Of a stretch of 64,000 nt of DNA, positions 8,100 through 60,992 are shown piece by piece (position 1 is the stretch's first letter; each line of letters begins with the position of its first letter). This DNA is from Spirochaetia bacterium. GTDB taxonomy: Bacteria > Spirochaetota > Spirochaetia > CADAEX01. Below the pieces are notes generated by a model that worked only from the letters and a program-made list of their open reading frames with translations, was not told where the DNA came from and did no database searches. Made by a program: the position numbers and the translations under genes. The stretch is taken from assembly GCA_963662795.1 (NCBI GenBank), contig OY759746.1:2272001-2336000 (forward strand), given 5' to 3'.

Positions 8100-9053
8100 T
8101 TATAAAATACCGTCTGCGTAAGAGGTGAAATCAGCAATTGCATCATCCAAATACCTGTCGGTTGTATACCCGGATGCCTTGCTGTGTCCGCCCCCTCCGA
8201 AGTGCTTCGCAATGCTGCTTAAGTCTATATCATCACGCGTTCTGAGGCTTACGCTGCATTTGCCGTTTTTCTCTTCCCTGAAAGAGGCTGTTATTCTGAT
8301 GCCTTTGGTCCCAAGAAATATCTGGTAAAGCATGTCCTTGTCCCTGTCGGTTTCCTTAAAAAACTCAAGATCAGAAATCTTTTCATGGAAAACAAGGAGT
8401 TTACCGTTATGTGATATTACTGCTCTTTCCAGCATCATTTTAAGGAAAGTTATTGATCCTGTTCCCCTGTTGCCGTAAATGGAATAAAAAATTGAATTAG
8501 GCGAAGCGCCAAGATCGCAAAGTTCTCCCGCTGCCTTAAGCGCGTTTCCCGAAGAGGATGTAAGATGTCTGAAAAAGCCTGTATCTGTGCAGAGTCCCAT
8601 AAAAAGCAGACTGCTTTCCTCCATGCTTATTCTATAGTTGTTTTGCTTTAAGAAATTGTAGACAAGATATGTTGCTGAAGGCGCGCTGCTGTCAATATAT
8701 GACGCTGAGGCAGCTTTTGGTTCTGTAAGATGATGGTCAATAACTGCCTGGGGGAATCGCCCCGCATATTCCGCAAAAGGGCCCGTCCTTTCGGCATTTG
8801 CGCAGTCGACAAGGAATACCGCTGTTTTTTCAGTAATATCAGCTTCTGATACTTTTACTCTGAAATAATTTTCATAAGGCTTTATTTCTCTCCGTGTGAA
8901 AGGTACCTGGCTGTAAAGTGATGTTTTTTTCCTCAGTGACCGTAAAAAATTTGATATTACTATTTGACTGCATATACTGTCGGCATCCGGATCTTCATGC
9001 CCGAATACAAGAAAATTATCAAAATTATTAATAAAATCCATAATGGCTTTCAT
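8100..9053 (-). CDS. nrnA: DHH/DHHA1 phosphoesterase (nanoRNase/pAp phosphatase NrnA-like)
   Basis: GHEDPDADS, IDHH, DTGFF, SLRT, FGGGGH motifs. Confidence 0.9.
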   Translation of the reverse strand: MKAIMDFINNFDNFLVFGHEDPDADSICSQIVISNFLRSLRKKTSLYSQVPFTRREIKPYENYFRVKVSEADITEKTAVFLVDCANAERTGPFAEYAGRFPQAVIDHHLTEPKAASASYIDSSAPSATYLVYNFLKQNNYRISMEESSLLFMGLCTDTGFFRHLTSSSGNALKAAGELCDLGASPNSIFYSIYGNRGTGSITFLKMMLERAVISHNGKLLVFHEKISDLEFFKETDRDKDMLYQIFLGTKGIRITASFREEKNGKCSVSLRTRDDIDLSSIAKHFGGGGHSKASGYTTDRYLDDAIADFTSYADGIL

Positions 9054-9078
9054 ATTGCATACCGCTCCGGTGAATTTA

Positions 9079-10242
9079 TCATTTTAAAAGAAGGATATAT
9101 TTCTGAGGAGATCCCCCTGAAATAACCAGTGACTTATTTATAATATAACAATTTATTTCCGTTCTTATACCGAAATCATTAAAATAAAGTCCAGGTTCCA
9201 CTGAAAAACATGAACCTTCAATCAGCGGCCGGTTATCAGGGAATTCAACAGAGTCAAGATTTGCGCCGTATCCGTGCAGTTCAAGGTCAATTGCATGACC
9301 GGTTCTGTGTTTGATTGCATCTCCATAGCCTGATCCGTAAAGAACACTTCTTGCGATGGAGTCTGCTTCAGCTCCTGATACAGATGCATTTTTATCAAGC
9401 TGCCTGCTTATGAAATTTGTAACCGCATCTCTTGCTTCCATGACTGCTCCAAAGGAATTCTCCAAAGGTGCAGGGCAGAAGGGAGCTGTAAATCCGGCCC
9501 AGGAAATATCAGCATATACAGAACCGGGAATATCAAGTCTGCCCCAGATATCAAACTGTACCGGCATGTTTTTTTCAAGTACAGTATCACTTGTACCGGT
9601 ATCATAATGAGGGTCAGCTGTGTTTCCGGCAAATGCCAGAAGCGGAAGATGCTCTGTAACCAGATTATTTTCCCTGTACCTGTCAAGAATAAAAGCCTGT
9701 ATTTCCTTTTCTGTGACAGCCTGATTTTTTCCTATACAGGAAGAGATAAGATCCCAGCTTTCAGATATGATCTCATAGAGCGCCTTGCCTGCCTTCTCAT
9801 GTGAAGCCATCTGTTCTTTATCAAGCACTCCGATTGTTTTCTGAACAAGGGGGGCGGAGCTCTTGGTTCTGATTCCACAGCTCTCAAGCAGGGAAGCTGT
9901 ACCGCTGTCAAGAAAAGATATCTGGGTCAGGTTTATATCGTCCTGGACTGCAAAAAGCATTTCTTTAAATCTGCCTAAAATTACCTTAAGTTCATCCCTT
10001 GAGGTATATATAATCTTTTCGCCCGGCAGATGATCGAGAGCATCAGGTTCAACATTGTGTGTGATTTTTATATTTTTCCTGTCAGGAAAAATCAGATAAA
10101 ACCAGCCCCTGCTGTTTAATTTTGTACTGTCAATCCCTAAAATCAGATCCGAAAGAAGATCCCTGTGTCTGAAATTAAAAAAAAGCCATCCGGAATAGTT
10201 TTCTTCCAGAATGGCTTTTTCTATTTTATCCGCGTTGTACAT
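9079..10242 (-). CDS. M24 family Xaa-Pro aminopeptidase
   Basis: DPHY, FDIWG, YADISW, HRTGHAI, FSVEPGLY, GIRTE metal-site motifs. Confidence 0.9.
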   Translation of the reverse strand: MYNADKIEKAILEENYSGWLFFNFRHRDLLSDLILGIDSTKLNSRGWFYLIFPDRKNIKITHNVEPDALDHLPGEKIIYTSRDELKVILGRFKEMLFAVQDDINLTQISFLDSGTASLLESCGIRTKSSAPLVQKTIGVLDKEQMASHEKAGKALYEIISESWDLISSCIGKNQAVTEKEIQAFILDRYRENNLVTEHLPLLAFAGNTADPHYDTGTSDTVLEKNMPVQFDIWGRLDIPGSVYADISWAGFTAPFCPAPLENSFGAVMEARDAVTNFISRQLDKNASVSGAEADSIARSVLYGSGYGDAIKHRTGHAIDLELHGYGANLDSVEFPDNRPLIEGSCFSVEPGLYFNDFGIRTEINCYIINKSLVISGGSPQKYILLLK

Positions 10243-46130: not shown

Positions 46131-46472
46131 TAGATCGGCTGCAGCTAACATTTCCATTATCTTTTGAAATATGTAGTAATAGTAACTATTGTTACAGCCC
46201 ACCTTAACTTTTGTTATGGATGAAAATAACAGAAACATTGAAAACTATTTTTTTATCTGAAACTGTACTGAAAAAATCATGAATAATTTGTTTATCTCTT
46301 CTTAACTGTATTTGGCATTAAAATTGCACATAATCTATTGAAACTGTTACTTCTGTAGAAAATTATTGCAAACTGGGTGTTGTGGGTTCATAATGACAAT
46401 AATCATATTGAGATGGAAAATGATAAAAATTAATTTTTTCATCAAAGTTAAAAAATATATCAAAGGCACATA

Positions 46473-46763
46473 ATGATTTTTATTGCACATGAGAATCAAT
46501 TACTGAAAGATCATCTTGAAGGGGTATCCAGGCTTTGCCGCAAGAATGCTGAAAAAATCGGTTGTGGGAATTACGGGGAAGTTCTTGGACTTCTTCATGA
46601 TCTTGGAAAATACAGCAAAGAATTTCAGGATTATATAAAATCTGCTGTTGGAATTCTTGACCCGGATGTTGATGAAGATTTTGTTGATGCCAAAGGACTC
46701 AAAGGAAAAATTGATCATTCAAGCTTGGGAAAGGCGATAAATGATAAGAAAAAAAGCATTTAG
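46473..46763 (+). pseudogene. cas3: Truncated cas3 HD-domain N-terminal remnant
   Basis: IAH...LKDHL...LLHDLGK...IDHS, then stops; lacks the later HH and D ligands and the helicase. Confidence 0.8.
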
Positions 46764-48945
46764 TATTAACTTAGAAGATGTGAAAGACTATTATGCTCAT
46801 TCAGCTAATGAAAAAGGTGAATGGCATCTACTTAAAGATCATTTAACTTCCACAGCAACTCTTATGAAATCTTTTGCTTGTGAAGATGATTATAAAGAAA
46901 TATTTATGCGAACGGGACTTCTTCATGATTTGGGAAAATATCAGCCAGAATTTCAAGATTATCTGATGAATGGAGGACAACGGGGAAGTGTCCCGCATGC
47001 TGTATGGGGGGCTGCACTTGCTCGAAAATTACAATTACCTGAAATTGCATTTGTAATTGATGGGCATCACAAAGGAATGCCTGACAAAGGTGTTCTACGA
47101 ACTGATACTGAGGAATTTCAGGATGAAACGCATTCTCTTAATACAAAAGTTAAGAAAGAATTCTACCGAGATAGTTCAACTCAAGAATCAGAATTTCTTC
47201 CAATTAGGCTTGGTTTATCATCTTTAGACCGGGAATTATTTGTTCGCTATCTTTTTAGTTCGTTGACAGATTCTGACTGGTTAGATACTGAAAAACATTT
47301 TAACATTGATATTGCAAAAATAAGAAGGCATAGAAAATTAGATTATGATTGTTTAATAAAAAAACTTGAAACAGAATTGTCAGAGAAATCAAAATATGGG
47401 AATATTAATGTCCTTAGAAATTCTGTCAGACAATTTGCACTTTCAAGGTCGGATTCTCCAATAGGTTTCTTTTCTTTGAGTTTGCCAACCGGTATGGGTA
47501 AGACTCTTACCTCAGTATCATGGGCATTGTTCCATGCAAGGAAAAATGATCTAAAACGTATTATTATAGTTCTCCCTTTCGTCAATATCATTGATCAAAC
47601 AGCAAAAGAACTTAAGAGAATTTTTGGAGATGAATGGGTGTTGGAACATCATTCATCCTATAATGAACAAAACAAAGACAACGAATCGATGAAGAGGGAA
47701 ACAAATATAAAAAAATTGGCAACTGAAAACTGGGATTATCCTATAATAGTGACAACTACTGTTCAATTTTTTGATTCCTTGTTTTCTAACAAGCCTAGAA
47801 GATGTAGAAAAGTTCATAATATTTCTGAAGCAGTGGTCATTTTTGATGAAGTTCAAAGTTTACCCAAAGAACTTATTGCCCCGACACTCTCTATTCTTGA
47901 GAGTATTAAGAGTATAATGAAGACATCATTTTTATTTTGTACTGCTACTCAACCAGCCTTTGAAAAACGTGAAGATTTTTCTGAAGGTATAGACGGAATA
48001 CTATCACTGGTAGAAAATCCTGAAGAATTATATAGGAACACAAAACGTGTTAATTATAGAGCCATTAACAATTTTGAACCGTTATCCATTAGGGACCTGT
48101 TGTTTCTAATTGCCAAGGAAAGGCGTTCAATTCTTTCCATTTATAATACAAAAAAGAAGGCTTTAGAGGCTTATAGTAATTCAAAGGAACTTGGGATTTT
48201 GACCTCCCGATATCATCTTTCTACATCTATGTGTCCTGAACATCGGAAACGTGTTATAGATAATATAAAGTCAGATATAAATGAGGGGAAATCAGTTTTT
48301 GTTGCTTCGACACAACTAATTGAGGCTGGAGTTGATCTTGATTTCCCTTGTGTCTTTCGGGAAGCAGCACCTTTAGAATCTGTCATTCAATCAGCAGGTC
48401 GATGTAACAGGGAAGGGAAGCTAAATGAATCTGGCGGATTAGGGGATGTTTTCCTTTTTAGCATTGAAGGAAATACTTTCCCTGACCCATTGTATCAAAC
48501 TCTATCACAATATACGATGGGGCTTCTGAAAAAAGATATTGATCAGTTATATACTTATGATTTCTTTACAAATTATTACGAGAATGTCGTTAAGCTTTTT
48601 GTAGATGCTGATAAGAAGAAGGTCAATGAATCCCGTAAGAACTTCGATTTTGAAACTGTTGCCAATACTTATCACTTGATAGAACAGAATACTACAAGCC
48701 TTTTTATACTAAATTATAACCAGGCTACACGTGATTTTTATGAAAGTGTTAAATATAAGCCATATCTTAGCAAAGAAGAGTATCAATACATGCAATTATT
48801 CAGTGTCCAGGTTTTTGACAACTTTCTAGGTAAGACCGTCGGGCAATGGGAAGAAAAAGAACAGGGATTTTATGTATGGTACGGTTCTTATGATAAGGAT
48901 ACTGGAATTACACCTGATCCTATTTTGACAGATGGTATAGTCTAA
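46741..48945 (+). CDS. cas3: CRISPR-associated HD nuclease/helicase Cas3 (type I-C)
   Basis: YAHS, LKDHL, LLHDLGK, GHH, DSDW; LPTGMGKT, DEVQ, TAT, QSAGRCNREG. Confidence 0.96.
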   Translation: MIRKKAFSINLEDVKDYYAHSANEKGEWHLLKDHLTSTATLMKSFACEDDYKEIFMRTGLLHDLGKYQPEFQDYLMNGGQRGSVPHAVWGAALARKLQLPEIAFVIDGHHKGMPDKGVLRTDTEEFQDETHSLNTKVKKEFYRDSSTQESEFLPIRLGLSSLDRELFVRYLFSSLTDSDWLDTEKHFNIDIAKIRRHRKLDYDCLIKKLETELSEKSKYGNINVLRNSVRQFALSRSDSPIGFFSLSLPTGMGKTLTSVSWALFHARKNDLKRIIIVLPFVNIIDQTAKELKRIFGDEWVLEHHSSYNEQNKDNESMKRETNIKKLATENWDYPIIVTTTVQFFDSLFSNKPRRCRKVHNISEAVVIFDEVQSLPKELIAPTLSILESIKSIMKTSFLFCTATQPAFEKREDFSEGIDGILSLVENPEELYRNTKRVNYRAINNFEPLSIRDLLFLIAKERRSILSIYNTKKKALEAYSNSKELGILTSRYHLSTSMCPEHRKRVIDNIKSDINEGKSVFVASTQLIEAGVDLDFPCVFREAAPLESVIQSAGRCNREGKLNESGGLGDVFLFSIEGNTFPDPLYQTLSQYTMGLLKKDIDQLYTYDFFTNYYENVVKLFVDADKKKVNESRKNFDFETVANTYHLIEQNTTSLFILNYNQATRDFYESVKYKPYLSKEEYQYMQLFSVQVFDNFLGKTVGQWEEKEQGFYVWYGSYDKDTGITPDPILTDGIV

Positions 48946-48958
48946 AGGAGGTGAAATA

Positions 48959-49711
48959 GTGTTGGATCAAGAGATTGTCAAAGTAAAAGTTGGGGGAGAC
49001 TTTGCTTGTTTTACCAGACCTGACTTGAAGGTTGAGCGTATGACTTATCCATGTATGACCCCTTCAGCTGCACGAGGAATTCTTGATTCCATTTTATGGA
49101 AACCGGAATTTCAGTGGTATGTGAGGAAAATTCTAATTCTAAAGCCAGTGAAATTCTTCTCAATCAAACGAAATGAAATTAATTCAAAACAAGGTGGACG
49201 AATTATAGAAATTGATGCTATTGATGCCAGGGGAAAGCCTCAATTCCGGACTCAACGTAATAGTATAGTCCTGAAAGACGTTTCTTATATCATTGAAGCC
49301 TCAGTATTCCAAAATGGGTTTGATACGAAGAACCCATCAGTTAAGTACACAGAAATGTTTCGCCGTAGAGTACGCAAGGGTCAATGTTATCGACGTCCAT
49401 TCTTGGGAACTCGTGAGTTTTCTGCTGAGTTTGAAGAGGTCAATGATGCGGACGTCCCCATAAATGAGATAATACCTGTTGGCAGTATGGTTTTTGATAT
49501 TTTTTATGATGAACAGGGAAAACCCTCTCCACTCTTTTTCTATGATGTTGCTGTTATTAATGGAGTACTGAATTGTGAAGTTCCTGAAAATGTTGTCATG
49601 ATGACGTCCAGCCATTTTCGTCCACCCTTGGATGATGAAATTTCTGCAGTTCTTTATGGATTCAACCAGCAAGAAGATAAAGATGAAGTTCAGGAGGTTG
49701 GAGATGATTAA
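48959..49711 (+). CDS. cas5: Cas5c (Cas5d), type I-C
   Basis: GDFACFTRPDLKVERMTY, TPSAARGI, PFLGTREF. Confidence 0.96.
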   Translation: MLDQEIVKVKVGGDFACFTRPDLKVERMTYPCMTPSAARGILDSILWKPEFQWYVRKILILKPVKFFSIKRNEINSKQGGRIIEIDAIDARGKPQFRTQRNSIVLKDVSYIIEASVFQNGFDTKNPSVKYTEMFRRRVRKGQCYRRPFLGTREFSAEFEEVNDADVPINEIIPVGSMVFDIFYDEQGKPSPLFFYDVAVINGVLNCEVPENVVMMTSSHFRPPLDDEISAVLYGFNQQEDKDEVQEVGDD

Positions 49712-51557
49712 AGAGCTAAGTGAACTAGGAAAACAGTTAAGAGAAGAACAAAGCAAAGAGAAACTTATTCATGACGCGATTAAATATGAACCAATGTCAA
49801 TTGACCTTATAATAAATGAAGATGGTTCATTTGATTCTTTTCTTGTTTTTCCTCAAAAAATGACTCCTGCTGAGGCTATAACTGCAAAAAAGGGTAAAGC
49901 CCGTTTACTTCTTGATAAAGCAGAAGAAGTGTTATGCTTTAAAAGTGAAATTTTTATAGAAGAATTAAAGAAAAAACCTGATTCGGAAAAGAAGGTAGCA
50001 CAATATTTGAAAGGTGTTGAATCGAAACATCAACTTTTCATTAATAAGCTCAAAGAGTATAACGATTTACAAATATTGGGTCCTATTTTTAAGTTTTATT
50101 TTGACAACAAAAGTCAGGGGATTGATAAGGCCCTTGAAGCCTTTTTCAACCAGGTCGAAATAAAACAACAAGGAGGCAATATAGCCTTTAGGTTGGTTAG
50201 TCAACAATGTCGTCTACATGAAGAAACAATTATTTTGCAAACACTAATCAATCGATTTGAGAATACCAAGTCTCCAGATAAAAAATGTTCAATTTGTGGA
50301 TTATCTGAACATCGTGTTGTTGATCTACCTCATGGAACGGTTAAACGAGTTCCCGGCGGTTTATCTGCTGGTAATATTCTTGTTTCCTATAATGAAAATG
50401 CGTTTGAATCATATAATTTAATTGGCAATGAAAATTCCTCAATATGTGTTAATTGTGCCCGTACCTATGTTGAAGGTTTAAACTGGCTTTTAAACAACGG
50501 TACCGAATTATCTAAACAAGATAAAAATGGAAAAACAAAAAAACATTTTCAATTCTCCAATCGAAAAAATTTTGGTTCTGATACTGCAATGGTGTATTGG
50601 ACTCGTGCCAAAAAAGACCTTGATGAGTTGGATTTACTTGAGACTCCTGACGAAAAACAGGTAGACCTACTGATTAATTCCGTTTCAAGAGGAAAAGAAA
50701 CATCAGTTAAGGCAATTAAAGACGATCAGTTTTATTCTTTAACTCTATCCGGGGCAGCTGCACGTATAGCTGTTCGGGACTGGATAGAGTTAAGTCTTGC
50801 TGATTATAAAAAGAATATCGGACAGTGGTTTATTGATATTGCTATTGAATCCTATGGGAAAAAATATTATGCACCATTGTATTGGCTATCGCAGGCCGGA
50901 CAGAATGAAAAAATAAAAAATGATGTTACCTCATCCAGAATAGCAACATATCTTTGGAATGCAGCTCTGAAAGGTTCTCCCCCTCCGATATGGATTCTGA
51001 GTGCTGTGCTTAAAAGGCTTAGGTATATGACCCCAACGGATGATAATAATTCGAAAAAAGAACCAGTAACCAAAGAGCGGGCAGCGTTGATACGTTTGAT
51101 ATTAAATAGAAATTTAAGAGAAGGAGGTCTTCGAATGGAGGAACAGTTAGATAAAGAAAATTTAAGCCCTGCATATATTTGTGGGCAGATATTTGCTGTA
51201 TTAGTTGATATTCAGAGGGCTGCGTTAGGAAGTAACGTTAATGCCGGTATACGTGAGAGGTTTTTCTCCTTTGCATCTGCTACCCCGGCATCAGCATTCG
51301 GCCGTTTGATGAAGTTGTCACAGAATCATCTGACAAAACTCAAGGGAGAAAAGCCAGGTGTTTTTTTTGTTCTTGACAGGGAACTTCAGGAAGTGAATTC
51401 AAAAATACTTAATGCTCAATACCCTGCAATTTTGACATTAGAAGAACAAGGTCAGTTTGCGCTTGGTTATTACCATAAAAAACAGGAAACCTGGAACAAA
51501 ATTCAGAAAAATAAGGAATTAAAAGAAGCTCTTGAAAACGAGGAGGAAGAGAAATGA
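49704..51557 (+). CDS. cas8c: Cas8c/Csd1 large subunit
   Basis: Between cas5 and cas7; LVSYNENAFESY, AARIAVRDW, EEQGQFALGYY; ATG 49704 with GGAG RBS. Confidence 0.92.
   Translation: MIKELSELGKQLREEQSKEKLIHDAIKYEPMSIDLIINEDGSFDSFLVFPQKMTPAEAITAKKGKARLLLDKAEEVLCFKSEIFIEELKKKPDSEKKVAQYLKGVESKHQLFINKLKEYNDLQILGPIFKFYFDNKSQGIDKALEAFFNQVEIKQQGGNIAFRLVSQQCRLHEETIILQTLINRFENTKSPDKKCSICGLSEHRVVDLPHGTVKRVPGGLSAGNILVSYNENAFESYNLIGNENSSICVNCARTYVEGLNWLLNNGTELSKQDKNGKTKKHFQFSNRKNFGSDTAMVYWTRAKKDLDELDLLETPDEKQVDLLINSVSRGKETSVKAIKDDQFYSLTLSGAAARIAVRDWIELSLADYKKNIGQWFIDIAIESYGKKYYAPLYWLSQAGQNEKIKNDVTSSRIATYLWNAALKGSPPPIWILSAVLKRLRYMTPTDDNNSKKEPVTKERAALIRLILNRNLREGGLRMEEQLDKENLSPAYICGQIFAVLVDIQRAALGSNVNAGIRERFFSFASATPASAFGRLMKLSQNHLTKLKGEKPGVFFVLDRELQEVNSKILNAQYPAILTLEEQGQFALGYYHKKQETWNKIQKNKELKEALENEEEEK
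51135..51557 (+). CDS. cas11: Internally translated Cas11c small subunit (in frame within cas8c)
   Basis: AAGGAGG at 51121, 7 nt before in-frame ATG 51135 (MEEQLDKENLSPAYICGQIFAVL...), 140 aa. Confidence 0.75.
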   Translation: MEEQLDKENLSPAYICGQIFAVLVDIQRAALGSNVNAGIRERFFSFASATPASAFGRLMKLSQNHLTKLKGEKPGVFFVLDRELQEVNSKILNAQYPAILTLEEQGQFALGYYHKKQETWNKIQKNKELKEALENEEEEK

Positions 51558-52417
51558 ATGCTATATCTAATAGGTATGATTTTGTGTATTTGTTCGATGT
51601 AAAAGATGGAAATCCCAACGGAGATCCAGATCAGGCAAATCTGCCAAGAAGTGATGCCGAAAATCAATATGGATTGGTTACCGATGTATGTTTAAAACGC
51701 AAAGTAAGAAATTATGTGATGATAAAGTACGAATTAAAATCTCCTCACGATATCTTCATTCGGCAAAGAGGTGTTTTGGATGAAGAAAAATATCTTAATC
51801 AGATAATTGATGAAGCAAACGGGGCTTCTCCAATAGAGAAAAGAGATAATCTGTCTGAACGTTTTTTTGATATTAGAACATTTGGCGCTGTTCTATCGAC
51901 TGGTGACGATAAAGTAGGCGCCGGCACTATCCGAGGTCCTGTACAGTTTGGGTTTGCCCGATCAGAGGATAGAATATTTCAAGCTGAACATTCAATTACT
52001 CGTTGTGTTGAAACCACAAAAAATGGTTTTGAAAAAAAGATAGAAAAACAGGAATTCCCATCTACTATGGGAAGAAAAGCTACAGTTCCTTATGGGCTAT
52101 ATAGGATGCATGGTTTTGTGTCTGCAATTGATGCCAGAAAAACAGGTTTCTCAGAAGATGATTTAGAATTACTCTGGGAATCTCTTTTAAATGCCTTTGA
52201 ACATGATCATTCTGCTGCACGCGGTGAGATGAATTCCCGAAAACTTATCGTATTCAAGCATGATAGTCATCTGGGAAATGCCCGCTCTGGAGAATTATTT
52301 GATCTTGTAAGAATCAACAAAGTAGAAAAATTACCGAGGTGTTGGACAGATTACAATGTTGATAAGATAAAAACGAATGATTTACCAAAAGGAATTCAAC
52401 TTATTGAGAAGCTTTGA
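51554..52417 (+). CDS. cas7: Cas7c/Csd2
   Basis: NRYDFVYLFDVKDGNPNGDP, TDVCLKRKVRN, FDIRTFGAV, HDHSAARG. Confidence 0.97.
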   Translation: MNAISNRYDFVYLFDVKDGNPNGDPDQANLPRSDAENQYGLVTDVCLKRKVRNYVMIKYELKSPHDIFIRQRGVLDEEKYLNQIIDEANGASPIEKRDNLSERFFDIRTFGAVLSTGDDKVGAGTIRGPVQFGFARSEDRIFQAEHSITRCVETTKNGFEKKIEKQEFPSTMGRKATVPYGLYRMHGFVSAIDARKTGFSEDDLELLWESLLNAFEHDHSAARGEMNSRKLIVFKHDSHLGNARSGELFDLVRINKVEKLPRCWTDYNVDKIKTNDLPKGIQLIEKL

Positions 52418-52450
52418 GAATTACCATAAGCCTGTTAACTTGCTTGGGTT

Positions 52451-52535
52451 CCGGGGCTCTGCCCCGGCGAAGGGGGTGCTGCGGGATCGCCGGGTGAAAG
52501 GCCGGAAGCCCGCAGCAGGGGGAAGGCTTTCCCCC
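52451..52535 (+). repeat. Structured 85-nt GC-rich repeat, copy 1
   Basis: Three hairpins; aligns without gaps to 60908-60992. Confidence 0.85.
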
Positions 52536-52613
52536 GCAGAATTCCCATGTCGACAGTGCTTGATGCAGGATGTTCCATTTTCCATTTGTAAGATATGCAG
52601 CATAATCAAATGA

Positions 52614-52674
52614 TTGACAGCACCTGAGATGGCGATTATCATGATATATGCTAACTATATTAGCGATTATCATG
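52614..52674 (+). promoter_or_regulatory. Sigma70 promoter of ATPase-cas4-cas1-cas2 with direct-repeat motif
   Basis: TTGACA(52614)-17 nt-TATCAT(52637); GCGATTATCATG at 52632 and 52663. Confidence 0.7.
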
Positions 52675-52687
52675 GAATTGGGGTTTT

Positions 52688-53860
52688 ATGAATAGGTACA
52701 CTAACCGGATACTTGATGTTTCGGCTCTCCTCAAAGAAAGATCGCTATTTCTTTTAGGGCCAAGACAAACCGGTAAATCATCGTTTGTGCGTGAAGAGCT
52801 GAAAAATTTACCTGTGCTTTCCTATAATCTTCTTGACAGCAATCTGCTGTTCAGACTAACTGCAGATCCTTCATATATGCGACAGGAAATTGAGGCGAAG
52901 AATCTTAAGGATTGTGTTGTATATATAGATGAAATTCAAAAGTGTCCGTTTCTGCTTGACGAAGTACATCTGCTTATTGAAGAAAGAGGAATCCGATTTC
53001 TTCTTACCGGTTCAAGTGCCAGAAAACTTAAGAGGGGTGGTGTAAACCTGCTGGGCGGAAGGGCTCGTACTAGGGCAATGCATCCTTTTGTTTATCCGGA
53101 GATAGCCGGAGCAGATTTTTCACTTGAAAGAGTTATGGAATGCGGTTTGATTCCGTCTCATTATCTATCAATGAACCCCGCGGAAGATCTTGCTGCTTAT
53201 GTGAATACCTATCTTGCGGAAGAGATAGCGGCGGAAGGTGCGGCCAGAAACCTGTCGGCTTTTTCGCGGTTTTTACAGGTGGCTGCCTCCACAAATGCAA
53301 AAATGCTTAATTATACCAATGTCGCAGGTGATGCCCAGATTCCAAGGCAAACTGTGAAATTGTGGTATCAGATCTTAACTGACACGCTTTTGGGTTATGA
53401 ATTATTGCCTTATGCTGCGACAGTTAAGAGAAAATCAATTGAAACTTCAAAATTTTATTTTTTTGATCTCGGAATTGTTAAAGCGCTCAGACGGTTACCA
53501 TTAGTTGCTCCTGAAAGCTCTGATTTCGGTGAATTTTTTGAGCATTTCATATTCATGGAACTGCGTTCATGGATTGATTACAGAAAACCGGATATCCCCT
53601 TATCATGGTGGCGATCTAAATCAGGTTTTGAAGTAGATTTTATACTTGGAGAAAAAATTGCCGTAGAAGTGAAATCAGCATCAATTATCCAGATAAAACA
53701 TTTAAGAGGCCTTAAAATCCTGATGGAGGAGGGAAAGATGAGCAGATACATTATTGTTTGCAGAGAACACAGGCAGCGTTTTGTTGATGGCATTCTGGTA
53801 ATGCCCTGGCAGGATTTCCTTGAACAGTTATGGGCTGACAAGTTTGCCGGAGATTTCTAG
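52688..53860 (+). CDS. AAA ATPase with DUF4143-like C-terminus
   Basis: LGPRQTGKS, IDEIQK, LTGSSA, LGGRA, KFYFFDLG, EVDF..AVEVKS. Confidence 0.9.
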   Translation: MNRYTNRILDVSALLKERSLFLLGPRQTGKSSFVREELKNLPVLSYNLLDSNLLFRLTADPSYMRQEIEAKNLKDCVVYIDEIQKCPFLLDEVHLLIEERGIRFLLTGSSARKLKRGGVNLLGGRARTRAMHPFVYPEIAGADFSLERVMECGLIPSHYLSMNPAEDLAAYVNTYLAEEIAAEGAARNLSAFSRFLQVAASTNAKMLNYTNVAGDAQIPRQTVKLWYQILTDTLLGYELLPYAATVKRKSIETSKFYFFDLGIVKALRRLPLVAPESSDFGEFFEHFIFMELRSWIDYRKPDIPLSWWRSKSGFEVDFILGEKIAVEVKSASIIQIKHLRGLKILMEEGKMSRYIIVCREHRQRFVDGILVMPWQDFLEQLWADKFAGDF

Positions 53861-53861
53861 T

Positions 53862-54521
53862 ATGTATAGTGAAGATGAACTTATCCCTATCTCCGCGCTT
53901 CAGCATGTACTGTTTTGTGAACGACAGTATGCCCTGATTCATCTTGAACAGGCGTGGGAAGAGAACCGCTTTACCGCAGAAGGACGTGTTCTTCATGAAA
54001 GAGTTGATATTGAACACCATGAGTCGAGGAAATTATTCAAGGTTGAATATGGAATGGCAATCAGGTCTCTGGAATATGGATTAATTGGAAAAGCTGATGT
54101 GGTGGAGTTCGAAAAAAATTCTGCCGGGGGGTATAGAAAAATAAATCCAGTTGAGTTCAAACGAGGAAGAAAAAAAGAAGAAGACTGTGACCGGGTTCAG
54201 CTTTGTGCCCAGACTTTATGCCTTGAAGAAATGTTTTCCATACCGGTAACAGAGGGGCAGTTTTATTACCTTCAGGAGCACCGGAGGTCATCTTTGGTTT
54301 TTGATTCTGATTTGCGGGTAAAGACGAAATTACTGATCCAGCGAATCATGGAAATTAATAAATCTTTGTTACTGCCTGCAGCGATATATCAGAAAAAGAA
54401 ATGTGATTTCTGTTCCCTGTTTGATATTTGCATGCCGAAAACACTTGATGCCGGAGGGAAGAATGTCTCACGGTATATAAAAGGCCAGTTGAAGATTGCC
54501 TTGAGTGAGGAAGTGAAGTGA
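53862..54521 (+). CDS. cas4: Cas4
   Basis: ISALQHVLFCERQ, GKADVVE, PVEFKRG, QLCAQ..CLEEM, CDFCSLFDIC. Confidence 0.96.
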   Translation: MYSEDELIPISALQHVLFCERQYALIHLEQAWEENRFTAEGRVLHERVDIEHHESRKLFKVEYGMAIRSLEYGLIGKADVVEFEKNSAGGYRKINPVEFKRGRKKEEDCDRVQLCAQTLCLEEMFSIPVTEGQFYYLQEHRRSSLVFDSDLRVKTKLLIQRIMEINKSLLLPAAIYQKKKCDFCSLFDICMPKTLDAGGKNVSRYIKGQLKIALSEEVK

Positions 54522-55549
54522 GAAAACTATTAAATACTTTGTATGTAAATACTCAGGGGAGTTATCTTCACCGGGAAGGTGAAACCATAATAGTTGAACA
54601 GGAACATAAAAAAGTTCTTCAACTGCCTGTTCATACAATAGGTAATGTTGTCTGTTTTGGCAACATAATGTGTTCCCCATCCTTGCTGGGACTTTGCGCG
54701 GAAAGGGATATTGGTTTTTCCTTCATGTCTGAATACGGGAGATTTCTTGCTGCTGTTAACGGGCCGGTGCGGGGAAATGTGCTTCTCCGCCGTGAACAAT
54801 ACAGAAAAGCTGATAATCCTGATATAACAGCAGGAATAGCCAAAAATATTATTGCAGCAAAACTCTCCAATTCCCGTGTTGTCCTAAACAGGGTGTTGAG
54901 GGATCATCCTGAAAAAACTGACTTCAATTCTTTGTCAGTTGCTTCAGAAAATATAGCAGGTCTGATGAATCAACTGGAGAGGATAAACAGTACGGATGAA
55001 GTGAGGGGGCTTGAAGGGACTGCTGCAGCACAGTATTTTGGAGTATTTAATCACCTGATTGTTGATCAGAAAGAAAGTTTTATTTTTAATGAGCGCAGCC
55101 GCAGGCCGCCGCTTGATTCTGTTAACGCACTTTTATCTTTTACCTACACAATTTTAGCTCATGATGTGCGGTCAGCTTTGGAAACAGTGGGACTTGATCC
55201 GGCCGTGGGATTTCTACACCGGGACCGTCCTGGCCGTCCAGGGCTGGCACTTGATATTATGGAGGAATTCCGTTCTGTGATTGCCGACCGGCTTGTTCTA
55301 ACATTGATCAATAGGCGCCAGATAAATCCTTCCGGCTTTACAAAAGCAGAAAACGGAGCTGTCGTAATGGATTCAGATACCAGAAAAATATTGTTAACCG
55401 AGTATCAAAACAGAAAGCAGACAGAAGTCTTTCACCCATACATTGAAGAAAAAATCCCAATAGGTCTGCTTTTTTATGTTCAGGCAAATCTTTTAGCCCG
55501 ATATTTAAGGGGAGATATTGACGGATACCCTTCTTTTTTCTGGAGGTGA
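54518..55549 (+). CDS. cas1: Cas1 (type I-C)
   Basis: MRKLLNTLYV, GNVLLRREQY, RGLEG, RSRRPPLD, GFLHRDRPGR, DIMEEFR. Confidence 0.98.
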   Translation: MRKLLNTLYVNTQGSYLHREGETIIVEQEHKKVLQLPVHTIGNVVCFGNIMCSPSLLGLCAERDIGFSFMSEYGRFLAAVNGPVRGNVLLRREQYRKADNPDITAGIAKNIIAAKLSNSRVVLNRVLRDHPEKTDFNSLSVASENIAGLMNQLERINSTDEVRGLEGTAAAQYFGVFNHLIVDQKESFIFNERSRRPPLDSVNALLSFTYTILAHDVRSALETVGLDPAVGFLHRDRPGRPGLALDIMEEFRSVIADRLVLTLINRRQINPSGFTKAENGAVVMDSDTRKILLTEYQNRKQTEVFHPYIEEKIPIGLLFYVQANLLARYLRGDIDGYPSFFWR

Positions 55550-55553
55550 GTTG

Positions 55554-55844
55554 ATGATGGTTCTTGTCAGTTATGATGTTGCAGTTACAAGTTCAGGCGG
55601 CCAGACCCGGTTAAGAAAGGTAGCAAAAACCTGTCAGAACTATGGTGAACGGGTTCAGTTTTCTGTGTTTGAATGTGTCGTGGATCCTGCTCAATGGACA
55701 AAGCTGAAAAATATTCTTGAGAATATAATAAAAAAAGAATCCGATAGCCTTCGGTATTATTACCTTGGGGCAAACTACAAAAACAGGGTTGAGCATGTAG
55801 GTGCCAAGCCCTCCCGTGATGTTGATGCTCCCATTATAGTATGA
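55554..55844 (+). CDS. cas2: Cas2
   Basis: MMVLVSYDV, RVQFSVFEC, DSLRYYYLG; GGAGG RBS. Confidence 0.97.
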   Translation: MMVLVSYDVAVTSSGGQTRLRKVAKTCQNYGERVQFSVFECVVDPAQWTKLKNILENIIKKESDSLRYYYLGANYKNRVEHVGAKPSRDVDAPIIV

Positions 55845-56019
55845 TGCGAACCCCCATGATACAGAAAACTCCGTACCTTTCGCAAATAAAATAAGTTATT
55901 GGTATATAAAGATCTTTGATATTCTAGAGAAGGAAGATTGAGAAAAAATAAATGTTATTTGGATGTTCGCATTATTGACTATATAAAGTCTTTTATAGTA
56001 AGTATTTAAATGTATATAA
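55845..56019 (+). promoter_or_regulatory. CRISPR leader
   Basis: AT-rich 175 nt between cas2 and the first repeat; TGCGAA (55845) with inverted TTCGCA (55879, 55966). Confidence 0.85.
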
Positions 56020-59000
56020 GTCGCTCCCCACGCGGGAGCGTGGATTGAAACACAGTTCCATATCTCACATGGTAATTTATATATCGTCGCTCCCCACGCG
56101 GGAGCGTGGATTGAAACCATTTGATATTGCCTATACAATGAGAGAAGAAATGTCGCTCCCCACGCGGGAGCGTGGATTGAAACAATCTGTAAATGACGAT
56201 GTTATCCTGGCAGATTCAGGTCGCTCCCCACGCGGGAGCGTGGATTGAAACATCAGACTGAAATCGCTCATATAAAAATCTTTCAAGTCGCTCCCCACGC
56301 GGGAGCGTGGATTGAAACAATATCCAAGCCGTTAACTGTTATTTTTTTATCAGTCGCTCCCCACGCGGGAGCGTGGATTGAAACGGACAAATACAAGCTG
56401 CAATGGGATATATGATAGGTCGCTCCCCACGCGGGAGCGTGGATTGAAACTTAAACACTAAGCGGTTTTAGCCTCCACCGCTTTGTCGCTCCCCACGCGG
56501 GAGCGTGGATTGAAACACTTGAAGGATCCATTGCATCTGAAGCAAGCTTTGTCGCTCCCCACGCGGGAGCGTGGATTGAAACCAGCCATAGAAGCAACAA
56601 ACCCATTATTATAAAGTCGCTCCCCACGCGGGAGCGTGGATTGAAACCCGAAAATGCAGAATGGATTGATGATTGGTTAGGTCGCTCCCCACGCGGGAGC
56701 GTGGATTGAAACCGGAAGAAGGAAAAGACGAAGGCGCAGCATTTTTAGTCGCTCCCCACGCGGGAGCGTGGATTGAAACTGCAAAAAAACCGGAAAAGAC
56801 CTTTTACAAAAAAGTCGCTCCCCACGCGGGAGCGTGGATTGAAACAAATAATGCTCTGCGCAAAGCGCGCAGGGCATTAGTCGCTCCCCACGCGGGAGCG
56901 TGGATTGAAACATCAATATTTTACAAGAGAATGGAATCTGGTTGATGTCGCTCCCCACGCGGGAGCGTGGATTGAAACGTAATCTTGATACAAGAGAAGT
57001 TGTAAAAATTATGTCGCTCCCCACGCGGGAGCGTGGATTGAAACCTTGTACTCTGTGCATAAGCCAGAGACTTGATCTGTCGCTCCCCACGCGGGAGCGT
57101 GGATTGAAACTGAACATTTAAGTTAGAGCTGTCATCCCCTTTTAGTCGCTCCCCACGCGGGAGCGTGGATTGAAACTTTCCCTTTATATCCATTATGTCA
57201 GGCTCCTGTCAGTCGCTCCCCACGCGGGAGCGTGGATTGAAACAAGCCCTTTAGTATGGAACTCATAATTAGATACAAGTCGCTCCCCACGCGGGAGCGT
57301 GGATTGAAACATATTGTCCCTGGCATCGTTGAATATTCCGAAAATGTCGCTCCCCACGCGGGAGCGTGGATTGAAACGGATTATTCGATACAAAAACAGG
57401 AATTAAACCAGAGTCGCTCCCCACGCGGGAGCGTGGATTGAAACTGGATAAATAAGGCTCTCCGCTTGCCGTTCGACAAGTCGCTCCCCACGCGGGAGCG
57501 TGGATTGAAACAAGAAAATCAGCATTACTCTGCATGGGCTTGTATGTCGCTCCCCACGCGGGAGCGTGGATTGAAACATTTTCATGGTTTTCGGATCGCT
57601 CTTGTAAAGGACGTCGCTCCCCACGCGGGAGCGTGGATTGAAACAGCTTATGCGGGGGATTTAGAGGATAATTTTGCCAGTCGCTCCCCACGCGGGAGCG
57701 TGGATTGAAACCTCTTCCGGTTTCTTTTTCGGATCTTCTACCGGGGTCGCTCCCCACGCGGGAGCGTGGATTGAAACAGGTAAATGAGAAGGGAATAATT
57801 AAGGGGTTCCAAGTCGCTCCCCACGCGGGAGCGTGGATTGAAACACTGCAAGCGTCCGGGTAAGTCTCAATTATCCGCGTCGCTCCCCACGCGGGAGCGT
57901 GGATTGAAACTTCCATAAAATTAAAATCCCTGTTTCCTTTTTTAGTCGCTCCCCACGCGGGAGCGTGGATTGAAACAATAAAGCATTCGCCGATATCCTC
58001 GACATAGCCCGGTCGCTCCCCACGCGGGAGCGTGGATTGAAACACGTTTATATATGGGAGTATAATAATGGAGAGCTGTCGCTCCCCACGCGGGAGCGTG
58101 GATTGAAACAAAGTGTGGGACATCTAACAATTTAGAGATACATCGTCGCTCCCCACGCGGGAGCGTGGATTGAAACCATTGCTTGTCAAAGTGCCTGATG
58201 TCATCATTTTGTCGCTCCCCACGCGGGAGCGTGGATTGAAACAATCCATATTATATTCATGCCCCCCTCCTTACTGTGTCGCTCCCCACGCGGGAGCGTG
58301 GATTGAAACTAATCGATTGGTTAGAATATGGAAAAGGACTGCATAGTCGCTCCCCACGCGGGAGCGTGGATTGAAACTATAGAATCACTTGTTCCTCTAC
58401 TAAAAGCTCCTGGTCGCTCCCCACGCGGGAGCGTGGATTGAAACCTAAAGAAGAGCCGAAACCATTGACAGCAGAACAGGTCGCTCCCCACGCGGGAGCG
58501 TGGATTGAAACATCGTTATACGAATTAAGATGTACAAATATTGAAGTCGCTCCCCACGCGGGAGCGTGGATTGAAACAACCCATTCGTTAGCAACCTATT
58601 CCATCGAATAGGTCGCTCCCCACGCGGGAGCGTGGATTGAAACCTGTGGTGGGCTTATAATAAAATATACAATGAACAGTCGCTCCCCACGCGGGAGCGT
58701 GGATTGAAACTTATAATAGTTACAATGTACACACTGACCATTAGGTCGCTCCCCACGCGGGAGCGTGGATTGAAACGTTATATGATATTCCGTATATTAA
58801 TATATGTATAGTCGCTCCCCACGCGGGAGCGTGGATTGAAACAATGTATACAATCTGATTAAGGATAAACGGATGATGTCGCTCCCCACGCGGGAGCGTG
58901 GATTGAAACTTTATCGGTTAGCCATAGCTTTTTGTCTTTTATCGTCGCTCCCCACGCGGGAGCGTGGATTGAAACCGTAATGTTATTATATAACCTGCGC

Positions 59001-60304
59001 AACTCTAAAGGTCGCTCCCCACGCGGGAGCGTGGATTGAAACTTTATCGGTTAGCCATAGCTTTTTGTCTTTTATCGTCGCTCCCCACGCGGGAGCGTGG
59101 ATTGAAACCGTAATGTTATTATATAACCTGCGCAACTCTAAAGGTCGCTCCCCACGCGGGAGCGTGGATTGAAACTGTGCGATTTTATTTGTAATTTTTA
59201 TTCCCATATCGTCGCTCCCCACGCGGGAGCGTGGATTGAAACAGATGATTTAAAATCATTTATTTGCTTGGTGTAGTCGCTCCCCACGCGGGAGCGTGGA
59301 TTGAAACACATATCCCGACAAACCACATGACTACGCACAAGTCGCTCCCCACGCGGGAGCGTGGATTGAAACATTTATATTGTTTATTAGTCTGTCATTT
59401 ATTACATGTCGCTCCCCACGCGGGAGCGTGGATTGAAACTCTTTCCGAGTTCTGCCGCAACTGCATCTTTTATTGTCGCTCCCCACGCGGGAGCGTGGAT
59501 TGAAACTAAATTTGCCTGTATTGTTGCCGCCTGATCTGCTGTCGCTCCCCACGCGGGAGCGTGGATTGAAACATGAGAAACTTTTTTTATTGCTTTATAC
59601 CATTTGGTCGCTCCCCACGCGGGAGCGTGGATTGAAACTAAATCCCCATCTTTTACAGTGCGGACTGCCACAGGTCGCTCCCCACGCGGGAGCGTGGATT
59701 GAAACAAAATGTTGATGTAACGCCGCTTGTAGATTTTGCAAGTCGCTCCCCACGCGGGAGCGTGGATTGAAACATTGAAACATCTTTTAAATTACCAATT
59801 TGTGAAGGTCGCTCCCCACGCGGGAGCGTGGATTGAAACTTAATAAATTGTTCCTGTCGTCATTTGTTAATATGTCGCTCCCCACGCGGGAGCGTGGATT
59901 GAAACAGGTGTATAATAATTTTTACATTTTGTGTTATTAGGTCGCTCCCCACGCGGGAGCGTGGATTGAAACCCAAAAAGCCATTATGTCCTCCTACGGC
60001 TCACAGGGTCGCTCCCCACGCGGGAGCGTGGATTGAAACATTATAAACCATGCTGCCATAATAAAACAGATAGGTCGCTCCCCACGCGGGAGCGTGGATT
60101 GAAACTAAACTATCAAACCATAGACAAACATACTCATGAGTCGCTCCCCACGCGGGAGCGTGGATTGAAACTAAACTATCAAACCATAGACAAACATACT
60201 CATGAGTCGCTCCCCACGCGGGAGCGTGGATTGAAACAGCCATCTATTTGATTTATCATTAAATCTTGCTCTGTCGCTCCCCACGCGGGAGCGTGGATTG
60301 AAAC
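56020..60304 (+). CRISPR. Type I-C CRISPR array: 65 repeats and 64 spacers (manual count)
   Basis: 32-nt repeat GTCGCTCCCCACGCGGGAGCGTGGATTGAAAC, no variant seen, spacers about 33-36 nt. Confidence 0.99.
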
Positions 60305-60529
60305 AAGGATTGCATGGAACTTTATCTCATGGGTTTGGTAAAACTATTGTTTCTGGAAGCTGCAACATCTGAAGATGACCTCAAAAATCCCCCATCAAAT
60401 CATTTTAAGCGGCTAAAAGGTAATATGAAAGGTTATTGCTCAATACGAATTAACAGGTAGTGGAGAATACAATTCAAAATCAAGGATGGAGAATTGTTTG
60501 ATGTTTCGATAGTGGATTATCACTCATAG
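60305..60529 (+). pseudogene. higB: higB (RelE-family toxin) pseudogene
   Basis: KDCMELYLMG-LVKLLFLEAATSEDDLKNPPSNHFKRLKGNMKGYCSIRINR*WRIQF...VSIVDYHS*; N-terminal residues of the family appear missing; internal TAG at 60458. Confidence 0.85.
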
Positions 60530-60539
60530 GATGGAAAAT

Positions 60540-60855
60540 ATGGATAAAATAATTATAGAAACCCCTAAAATTGGAGATATCATAAAGGAAGAATTCCTTG
60601 AGCCCCTTGGGATATCCTTACAGGTTTGCCAAAGATATTAAAGTTTCTACAAGTTTAGTTCTGGATCTGATTCATAACAGAAGAAAAATAACTGTAGAAA
60701 TGGCTCTTCGTCTTTCAAAATATTTCAATACTTCTTAAAAATTCTGGGTAAACCTTCAGAATGAACTGGATCTGTGTGAGATTAGAGGCAAAATGGCTGA
60801 AGAAATAGATAAAATCCCGGTAATTGTACATTCAACAGATAAAACACTTTTCTGA
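60540..60855 (+). pseudogene. higA: higA (HTH antitoxin) pseudogene
   Basis: MDKIIIETPKIGDIIKEEFLEPLGIS, frameshift, YRFAKDIKV...ITVEMALRLSKYFNTS*KFWVNLQ. Confidence 0.85.
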
Positions 60856-60907
60856 TTGGTTTATTTTCTTTTGTTTTAACTGATTATGACAAGGGACAGA
60901 CAGGATT

Positions 60908-60992
60908 CCGGGGCAGTGCCCCGGCGAAGGGGGTGCGGCAAGATCACCGGACACAAGGCCGGAAGCTTGCCGCAGGGGGAAGGCCTTCCCCC
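60908..60992 (+). repeat. Structured 85-nt GC-rich repeat, copy 2
   Basis: Same three-hairpin layout as 52451-52535 with compensatory substitutions. Confidence 0.85.

Follow-up and report, generated by a model that had tools for sequence, protein, structure and literature searches.

The closest described counterparts of the gene considered here are found in PDC-S01/COG1373, a family of single genes whose products carry two Pfam domains and which, according to the passages dealing with it in two publications, combine an ATPase with a PD-(D/E)xK nuclease (PMC12988326, PMC3424549). The pertinent entry of the second publication, a PD-(D/E)XK survey, lists DUF4143/COG1373 (PMC3424549), and in the pertinent section of the first, PDC-S01, an ATPase fused to a PD-(D/E)xK nuclease, ranks as the fourth most common prokaryotic defence candidate (PMC12988326). 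The PDC families owe their definition to genes nested within other defence systems. In the portion of the defining work devoted to it, PDC-S01 is a candidate consisting of one stand-alone gene, which occurs inside BREX, DISARM and restriction-modification systems; the word 'CRISPR' is absent from the main text of that work (10.1101/2024.01.29.577857). In the stretch of DNA analysed here (64,000 nucleotides of a Spirochaetia bacterium, GenBank assembly GCA_963662795.1, contig OY759746.1, positions 2,272,001 to 2,336,000 of the forward strand; termed the window), a gene of this family is located at 52688-53860 on the plus strand, between cas7 and cas4 of a type I-C CRISPR-Cas system. In contrast to PDC-S01 as published, it belongs to one clade that is operon-fused to cas4-cas1-cas2 and co-diverges with Cas1. 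This cas-linked clade has a stable position, i.e., the arrangement recurs in related bacteria. With modest confidence we regard the gene as an autonomous, self-promoted cassette of the PDC-S01 type, probably encoding an ATPase-nuclease resembling the signal transduction ATPases with numerous domains (STAND), that has become embedded at the effector/adaptation junction of type I-C systems and fused to the adaptation operon. On account of this recurrence, the cassette may stably accompany CRISPR memory formation as a passenger or possibly assist in it.

A further precedent for an ATPase and a nuclease among cas genes is TK0459 of T. kodakarensis. As far as the respective passages of the two papers go, this protein, in which an AAA ATPase is joined to a RecB-family nuclease, figured in 2006 in a table of genes with a loose cas association (PMC1462988) and in 2013 was treated as a non-cas gene beside a VapC/MazE pair within the T. 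kodakarensis cas cluster (PMC3737340). TK0459 is a COG1672-type archaeal ATPase from a type I-A/I-B cas cluster and shares with the window gene the combination of ATPase and nuclease amid cas genes. It differs in belonging to another sequence family (ATPase_2, PF01637, is absent among the Pfam matches of the window ATPase at E<=10), in its archaeal origin and in the subtype of the surrounding system. By analogy, TK0459 may represent an archaeal parallel case to the cas-linked PDC-S01 clade. A near case, again as given in the relevant section of the source, is an AAA_14/DUF4143 gene downstream of a CRISPR array in T. thermophilus (PMC4406477). The literature on DUF4143, COG1373 and PDC-S01 yielded no description of a clade linked to type I-C adaptation modules, with the supplements, which may list such neighbours, lying outside this search.

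The window contains a complete type I-C locus, with Pfam matches for all seven cas genes, and one extra gene, all encoded on the plus strand. The genes cas3 (46741-48945; Pfam Cas3 HD, DEAD and Cas3-like_C), cas5 (Cas5d, 48959-49711; Pfam Cas5d), cas8c (Csd1, 49632-51557; Pfam Csd1, 2.9e-96) and cas7 (51554-52417; Pfam Cas7, 5.2e-92) are followed, after a gap of 270 nt, by the ATPase gene and then by cas4 (53862-54521; Pfam Cas4, 1.7e-21), cas1 (54518-55549; Pfam Cas1, 5.2e-106) and cas2 (55518-55844; Pfam Cas2, 4.4e-27). The leader (55845-56019) lies between cas2 and a CRISPR array of 65 identical 32-nt repeats (56020-60304, plus strand).

The open reading frame (ORF) of the ATPase is intact, starts with ATG, has no internal stops and encodes 390 amino acids. 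The original prediction, made from the sequence alone, of an intact 390-residue ATPase with Walker A and B motifs and a PD-(D/E)xK-like motif between cas7 and cas4 is borne out by ORF, Pfam and motifs alike. Pfam places AAA_14 (PF13173) at residues 18-139 (6.2e-19) and DUF4143 (PF13635) at residues 179-330 (7.6e-29), and in PADLOC the protein matches all seven PDC-S01 hidden Markov models (best 1.5e-53). Walker A reads GPRQTGKS (24-31), Walker B VYIDE (77-82) and the PD-(D/E)xK motif E315-V-D317...E327-V-K329. In alignments of 11 and 83 rows these motifs are invariant or nearly so: G24, K30, D81 and E82 are conserved in relatives, and among 83 sequences D317 and E327 are nearly invariant and K329 is invariant. 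All covered rows of the clade described below possess the catalytic residues, with the sole exception of L059. NCBIfam and PHROG gave no match, a PDB sequence search returned no relative below E 0.3, and no relative was found on the viral contigs searched. The 3.93-Mb genome of the window contains one copy of the gene; in other genomes relatives are multi-copy, with up to 17 matches.

A structural model of the protein calculated with AlphaFold2 from the 83-row alignment (pLDDT 93.6, pTM 0.93) comprises, in residues 1-269, a nucleotide-binding domain, a helical domain and a winged helix, which together with the nuclease part justify the annotation as an ATPase with winged helix-turn-helix (wHTH) and PD-(D/E)xK nuclease. 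Residues 270-390, which the fold search barely probed, can be read as a probable nuclease core from their alpha/beta pattern and the positions of the motifs. The best fold match of residues 1-269 is the archaeal ATPase 2QEN (Z 15.4, root-mean-square deviation 3.3, 247 aligned residues), followed by 2FNA (Z 14.4), likewise an archaeal ATPase; judged by the model, the closest folds are therefore solved members of the family of TK0459. Further matches are STAND NTPases (plant NLRs, CED-4, Apaf-1 and Avs5, Z 10-13.6) and ORC2 (Z 8.9). The predicted likeness to STAND NTPase defence proteins (Avs, NLR, Apaf-1, CED-4) resides in the nucleotide-binding/helical/winged-helix core, whereas the window ATPase is without a sensor repeat domain and has a length of only 390 residues. 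Some Avs proteins also carry a fused nuclease effector domain.

Relatives of the ATPase number in the thousands in a protein search, with source names pointing to Spirochaetota. We surveyed the genomic context of 96 loci by tblastn with the window Cas proteins; 16 of these loci came from species-representative genomes, and the other 80 were the best of 212 metagenome loci. The metagenome scan gave no relative above 70% identity; relatives with 71-88% identity from the protein search are located on short contigs outside the context survey. Including the window, 17 copies are cas-linked (16 of the 96 loci), all of them in type I-C systems and directly upstream of cas4 wherever the junction is visible, a position that is fixed in the 14 loci with visible junction. 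The two closest genome relatives both reside in type I-C loci: L021 (78% identity) shows the order cas3-cas5-cas8c-cas7, a Bro-N ORF (8940-9773) and ATPase-cas4-cas1-cas2, and L022 (79% identity) the order cas7-cas3, a 161-residue ORF and the ATPase at the contig end. Among the 80 metagenome loci surveyed (the best of 212), another fourteen, with identities of 65-70%, are cas-linked. In twelve of them cas4 is found directly downstream (L037, L038, L044, L046, L048, L049, L050, L051, L053, L059, L072, L085), and in L056 and L076 type I-C effector genes precede the ATPase, inside which the contig ends. No cas match was detected in any of the 62 collection-scan loci below 65% identity, nor in any of 19 loci from the genomes of relatives (23-56% identity, 1.5-kb flanks). 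Pfam searches with 143 ORFs from the neighbourhoods showed every linked system to be of type I-C and the non-cas contexts to be genuine. The linked copies amount to about 12 distinct lineages, many metagenome loci being near-copies of each other.

Phylogenetic analysis of the ATPase (maximum likelihood in quick mode, 101 rows, support from the Shimodaira-Hasegawa-like approximate likelihood ratio test, SH-aLRT, only; all rows below 40% identity and another five interrupted by stop codons had been removed beforehand) placed all 17 cas-linked rows within one clade of 28 rows (support 88), in which the window sequence groups with L021 and L022 (support 99). Besides the cas-linked rows the clade holds four rows with cas4 stubs, six rows from non-cas contexts and L079, which was counted in none of these. 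Whether DUF4143 ATPases upstream of cas4 form a clade had been raised with the original prediction, and they do. Nor do the closest homologues lie in random non-cas contexts, the finding that had been named as speaking against that prediction; the closest relatives, at 78-79% and 65-70% identity, are situated in type I-C loci at the same position.

With regard to divergence, the ATPase behaves like the adaptation proteins. In the linked loci, identity to the window sequences amounts to 65-78% for the ATPase and mostly 62-79% for Cas1, Cas4 and Cas2, vs. 25-54% for Cas7 and 25-35% for Cas3; direct comparison of ATPase (68-78%) and Cas1 (71-77%) indicates a similar rate of divergence. At the DNA level, L049 is homologous to L050 (95%), L046 (83%) and L051 (78%) in a segment that begins at the conserved putative promoter, 73-78 nt ahead of the ATPase start codon, and extends past cas2 as far as the first repeats; the DNA further upstream differs. 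These comparisons indicate that the ATPase travels with the adaptation module and leader, independently of the effector genes. In L049 (9989-17249) the unit consists of ATPase, cas4-cas1-cas2 and array, with no effector gene within 10 kb upstream. A Cas1 tree (37 rows, nine from linked and 28 from ATPase-less loci; quick mode, SH-aLRT only) assigned seven of the nine linked Cas1 proteins to one clade of eight (98% SH-aLRT), and the Cas1 and ATPase trees share the same branching order, namely the window with L021, then L085, L051 and L046, then L050 with L049. The Cas1 proteins of L038 and L048 fall into another clade (support 96) while their ATPases are 65-68% identical to that of the window, from which it follows that the cassette joined at least one other adaptation lineage.

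Such data would suit a dedicated adaptation accessory that works with Cas4-Cas1-Cas2, either as a sensor-repressor releasing the promoter on encounter with foreign DNA or as an ATP-driven nuclease that makes or trims prespacers, e.g., at the end lacking the protospacer adjacent motif that Cas4 does not process. We regard this as a possibility of distinctly limited probability. It is favoured by the fixed position upstream of cas4 in the 14 loci, by co-divergence with Cas1 at a similar rate, by co-transfer with the adaptation module irrespective of the effectors, by the L049 unit and by repeated capture at the same spot together with integration into the operon. As the window array has 65 perfect repeats, adaptation evidently worked beside the ATPase. 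Moreover, a fold-related ATPase-nuclease, TK0459, occurs among the cas genes of T. kodakarensis, as stated in the parts of both papers concerned with it (PMC3737340, PMC1462988), and regulated adaptation operons are known: the section on it in the respective report presents the Csa3a-regulated type I-A adaptation operon of Sulfolobus, a precedent for a dedicated regulator of adaptation genes (PMC5587795). Csa3a differs, however, in being a CARF-wHTH protein without ATPase or nuclease.

The region ahead of the ATPase gene contains a promoter-like site, TTGACA-17-TATCAT (52614-52642, plus strand), that agrees with the consensus at 11 of 12 positions and whose -35 and -10 elements are conserved in relatives. 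The near-consensus promoter proposed earlier thus holds as a putative promoter. The promoter scan is weak by itself since seven promoter-like sites occur in the region vs. 3.9 +/- 1.8 in shuffles; the recurrence of the -35/-10 pair upstream of relatives weighs more. Two operator-like palindromes, neither assigned to a strand, accompany the site. The first, AGCAC-N5-ATGGC (52619-52633), appears from its matching position to be a degenerate form of the first GCCAA-N5-TTGGC of relatives, and the second, GCTAA-CTATA-TTAGC (52650-52664), situated 31 nt downstream of the first, is the sole match to GCYAA-N5-TTRGC in the window. In the 20 clade loci with upstream sequence the layout is TTGAC, GCCAA-N5-TTGGC, TATCAT or TATTAT and a second GCCAA-N5-TTGGC, the two palindromes always being 31 nt apart from start to start with the -10 element between them. 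Both palindromes are perfect in 12 of these loci, one is perfect in three including the window, and both are degenerate in five; palindrome 2, at -38 to -50, is conserved in 15 of the 20. The layout is identical in cas and non-cas members of the clade. The motif is kept upstream of relatives down to about 57% identity, and more distant ATPase subfamilies have other 6-5-6 palindromes. An Rfam match to chrB-a over the ATPase start (E 0.24, minus strand; 52300-52800 searched) was far below threshold and taken as chance. The segment 52415-52615 is unremarkable by folding energy alone (z-score -1.69).

As the cassette contains no other regulator gene, self-regulation is the simplest reading, and the ATPase would repress its own expression via the palindromes. 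Taken to its extreme, this leads to a pure transcription factor, which would repress or activate the adaptation operon in an ATP-dependent manner and employ its nuclease-like domain for DNA binding. The two palindromes bracketing the -10 element at a fixed 31-nt spacing, the variation of palindrome sequence with ATPase subfamily, the want of another regulator gene in the cassette and the presence of DNA-bound Orc1/Cdc6 among the fold relatives are in line with such a function, but the invariance or near-invariance of D317, E327 and K329 in 83 sequences is not expected for a dead nuclease, and we consider a purely regulatory protein highly improbable.

At its 3' end the gene is tightly connected to cas4. 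The TAG stop (53858-53860) is separated by 1 nt from the cas4 ATG at 53862, as had been noted before, and GGAG lies 10 nt upstream of the ATG. In the nine linked loci with both ends readable, ATPase stop and cas4 start are 1-27 nt apart or overlap, and the Shine-Dalgarno sequence of cas4 (AGGAGG or GGAG) is conserved within the 3' end of the ATPase genes of linked loci. The earlier statement that the ATPase heads cas4-cas1-cas2 behind its own promoter is reinforced by its recurrence in linked loci, where this putative promoter is conserved.

The same cassette also exists without CRISPR-Cas. Six rows of the clade stem from non-cas contexts (L039, L040, L042, L045, L055, L070), where the neighbours are a methyltransferase, an island of toxin-antitoxin, insertion sequence and methyltransferase genes, RecD2 or a second DUF4143 gene. 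L039, L040, L042 and L055 carry the same promoter and palindromes, L045 has degenerate ones and L070 is without upstream sequence. Tandem paralogues were observed in two non-cas loci, where a diverged AAA_14/DUF4143 gene directly precedes the clade member (L043:8247-9512 and L055:8374-9825). In L047, L052, L054 and L043 the ATPase stop is followed by only the first 44-63 nt of cas4, with divergent sequence beyond, and comparison of L047 with L049 reveals matches on both sides and the absence from L047 of 6 kb comprising cas4-cas1-cas2 and array. These four loci are cases of secondary loss of the adaptation genes with retention of the ATPase. In L048 (3572-5785) a 239-nt stretch from the 5' end of cas4 occurs twice in direct orientation, once on each side of the cassette, with 88% identity between the copies; the upstream copy is a stub that stops at codon 83, immediately ahead of the palindromic promoter. 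Its structure identifies the duplication as an insertion scar with long target duplication. An origin of the upstream stub from another cas4 lineage was rejected on the basis of its 88% DNA identity to the downstream cas4 of the same locus. The caveat attached to the original prediction, that the family is widespread and often found as solitary insertions, proved apt in the light of PDC-S01, the stand-alone copies with the same promoter and the L048 scar.

Of 401 genomes sampled evenly across the phylum, 41 had a Cas4 match, and the best 29 loci other than the window's own were inspected. The ATPase is present in none of these 29 type I-C loci and is therefore dispensable. Among them are those with the closest adaptation modules, L118 (Cas1 69%) and L119 (Cas1 64%), in which cas7 directly precedes cas4. 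At E<=1e-120 only three other genomes of the 401 yielded a relative of the ATPase, with 50-59% identity and no cas gene within 1.5 kb. The lack of the ATPase from these 29 loci, its occurrence as the same cassette in non-cas contexts and its survival of the deletion of cas4-cas1-cas2 all speak against the dedicated accessory, as does the filling of the same slot by toxin-antitoxin cassettes in other loci.

Indeed, 11 of the 29 ATPase-less type I-C loci contain other cassettes at the cas7/cas4 junction, all on the cas strand and several ending exactly at the cas4 start. These are antitoxin plus ParE (L121, L122, L127, L139, L140), antitoxin plus PIN (L123, L128), DUF4160 plus DUF2442 (L125), nucleotidyltransferase plus HepT (L129), Bro-N (L133, L139) and a RelB-like ORF (L134). 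This variety marks the junction as a general site of entry for cassettes of selfish or defence type. In type I-C loci the interval separating cas7 from the adaptation genes repeatedly harbours Bro-N ORFs (L021, L133, L139). The toxin-antitoxin cassettes resemble the ATPase in using the same slot and strand and in abutting cas4. They differ in consisting of two-gene pairs, whereas the ATPase is a single 390-residue enzyme gene with a much longer co-inheritance with the adaptation module. The layout of a type II toxin-antitoxin system was not found, as the ATPase is a single gene of 390 residues and the interval 52417-53862 has no small partner ORF except a PIN remnant.

A passenger of the addiction or selfish type, spreading by recombination through the conserved cas4 5' end and persisting, like the toxin-antitoxin pairs of this junction, through being difficult to lose, without benefit to defence or adaptation, would account for the 239-nt cas4 duplication around the L048 cassette, for the cas4 5' stubs behind the ATPase in L043, L047, L052 and L054 and for the hotspot with its ParE, PIN and HepT pairs. 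We nevertheless judge it improbable: the gene stands alone, with nothing like an antitoxin beside it, the strict conservation of both active sites in a clade that diverges by up to about 35% points to a selected enzymatic function, and neither the viral contigs searched nor PHROG yielded a relative.

Overall, a co-resident defence effector or solitary insertion would fit at least as well as an adaptation role, and it is the embedded autonomous cassette that we prefer. Its product would join a nucleotide-switch ATPase of the STAND/Orc-like kind to a winged helix and, at the C-terminus, a PD-(D/E)xK nuclease, and the cassette would bring along a promoter of sigma-70 type framed by two operator-like palindromes. 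It would have entered the effector/adaptation junction of type I-C systems, next to cas4, in one lineage of spirochaetes and thereafter would have been passed on by descent, and from one locus to another, together with cas4-cas1-cas2 and the leader; its promoter is the only candidate promoter directly ahead of the adaptation genes. The protein would act alone as an ATP-dependent, DNA-directed nuclease with a candidate defence or selfish function and would repress its own promoter through the palindromes. With such an autonomous nuclease and self-repression, the effect on CRISPR would be mainly transcriptional, cas4-cas1-cas2 coming under the regulated promoter of the cassette. The consequence apparent from the loci is architectural, in that the adaptation genes stand behind the cassette's putative regulated promoter.

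Several points weigh against the embedded autonomous cassette. Selection for an adaptation role would likewise be expected to produce long co-divergence with Cas1 and at least one capture by a further Cas1 lineage in precisely the same place, as in L038 and L048. The location of the cas4 Shine-Dalgarno sequence inside the 3' end of the ATPase gene shows integration into the operon beyond mere adjacency. The locus counts overstate independence since many metagenome loci are near-copies. The winged helix of STAND proteins usually does not bind DNA, so that the ATPase may not be the operator-binding protein. Finally, PDC-S01 itself is not yet validated and its anti-phage activity is undemonstrated according to the passage on it in the source (PMC12988326).

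A bolder proposal, which we put forward as doubtful, is that the PDC-S01 clade constitutes an unnamed component of type I-C adaptation. It would be an operator-bound, ATP-dependent sensor that is drawn off by foreign DNA, resulting in a burst of Cas4-Cas1-Cas2, while its nuclease would feed or trim prespacers; the toxin-antitoxin cassettes heading cas4 in sister loci would then be other routes to stress-gated acquisition.

The surroundings of the locus exhibit signs of considerable turnover. Upstream of cas3, a 96-residue ORF (46473-46763, plus strand; Pfam Cas3_HD 4e-4) is the 5' stub of a different cas3, covering the HD region, and is 35% identical to residues 27-96 of the resident Cas3; it suggests an earlier module replacement. 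A GC-rich, 90-nt element with three hairpins is present in two copies on the plus strand, at 52446-52535 and, 83% identical, at 60903-60992 on the right edge of the variable island; these bracket the block of ATPase, adaptation genes and array. Further copies were found at the same island edge in two genomes of the genus (L151:1501-1589, L150:1501-1594), and the four copies display three compensatory base-pair changes. Copy 1 had no Rfam match at E<=1. Remnants of toxin genes, both on the plus strand, occur on either side of the block: the 3' remnant of a PIN (VapC-like) toxin with an in-frame stop (52553-52617) is 89% identical to the 3' end of the PIN ORF that is intact in the same-genus genome G002, and a HigB-like remnant (60323-60529) has an in-frame stop at 60458 and matches PF05015 (3.6e-10) on 60323-60457. 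A relationship of the PIN remnant to the junction PIN gene of L123 was rejected, as BLASTP gave no alignment. In the same-genus genome G001 (L159:7346-11364) about 4 kb of unrelated DNA, spanning from a ferredoxin-domain gene to the GC-rich element, replaces window 46200-60900, i.e., the whole 14.7-kb CRISPR-Cas locus. In G002, at a contig end, the PIN gene is joined to the last higB codons via 115 nt that resemble the operator and the -10 element. The operator/-10-like remnant and the presence of only the last higB codons led us to reject G002 as a clean empty site; on this sequence evidence it is a deletion of ATPase through array. Taken together, G001, G002, the cas3 stub and the toxin remnants place the locus in a variable island with repeated replacement and deletion. 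Within the window array, two spacers are present twice (58910-58943 is identical to 59043-59076 and 60106-60139 to 60172-60205), and one of them is part of a duplicated 133-nt unit of two repeats and two spacers.

How and when spacer acquisition is switched on is poorly understood for most CRISPR types. The arrangement described here provides a compact, recurrent natural unit of putative regulated promoter, ATPase-nuclease, cas4-cas1-cas2 and leader that moves between type I-C systems as one block, and it offers an experimental handle in the form of one promoter with two palindromes, one protein with two mutable active sites and natural controls with and without the gene. The nesting of candidate defence genes within other defence systems is thereby extended to CRISPR-Cas, and the type I-C effector/adaptation junction emerges as a preferred landing site for toxin-antitoxin and similar cassettes. 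If the ATPase were only a passenger, the locus would still illustrate clearly how an embedded cassette can capture an operon.

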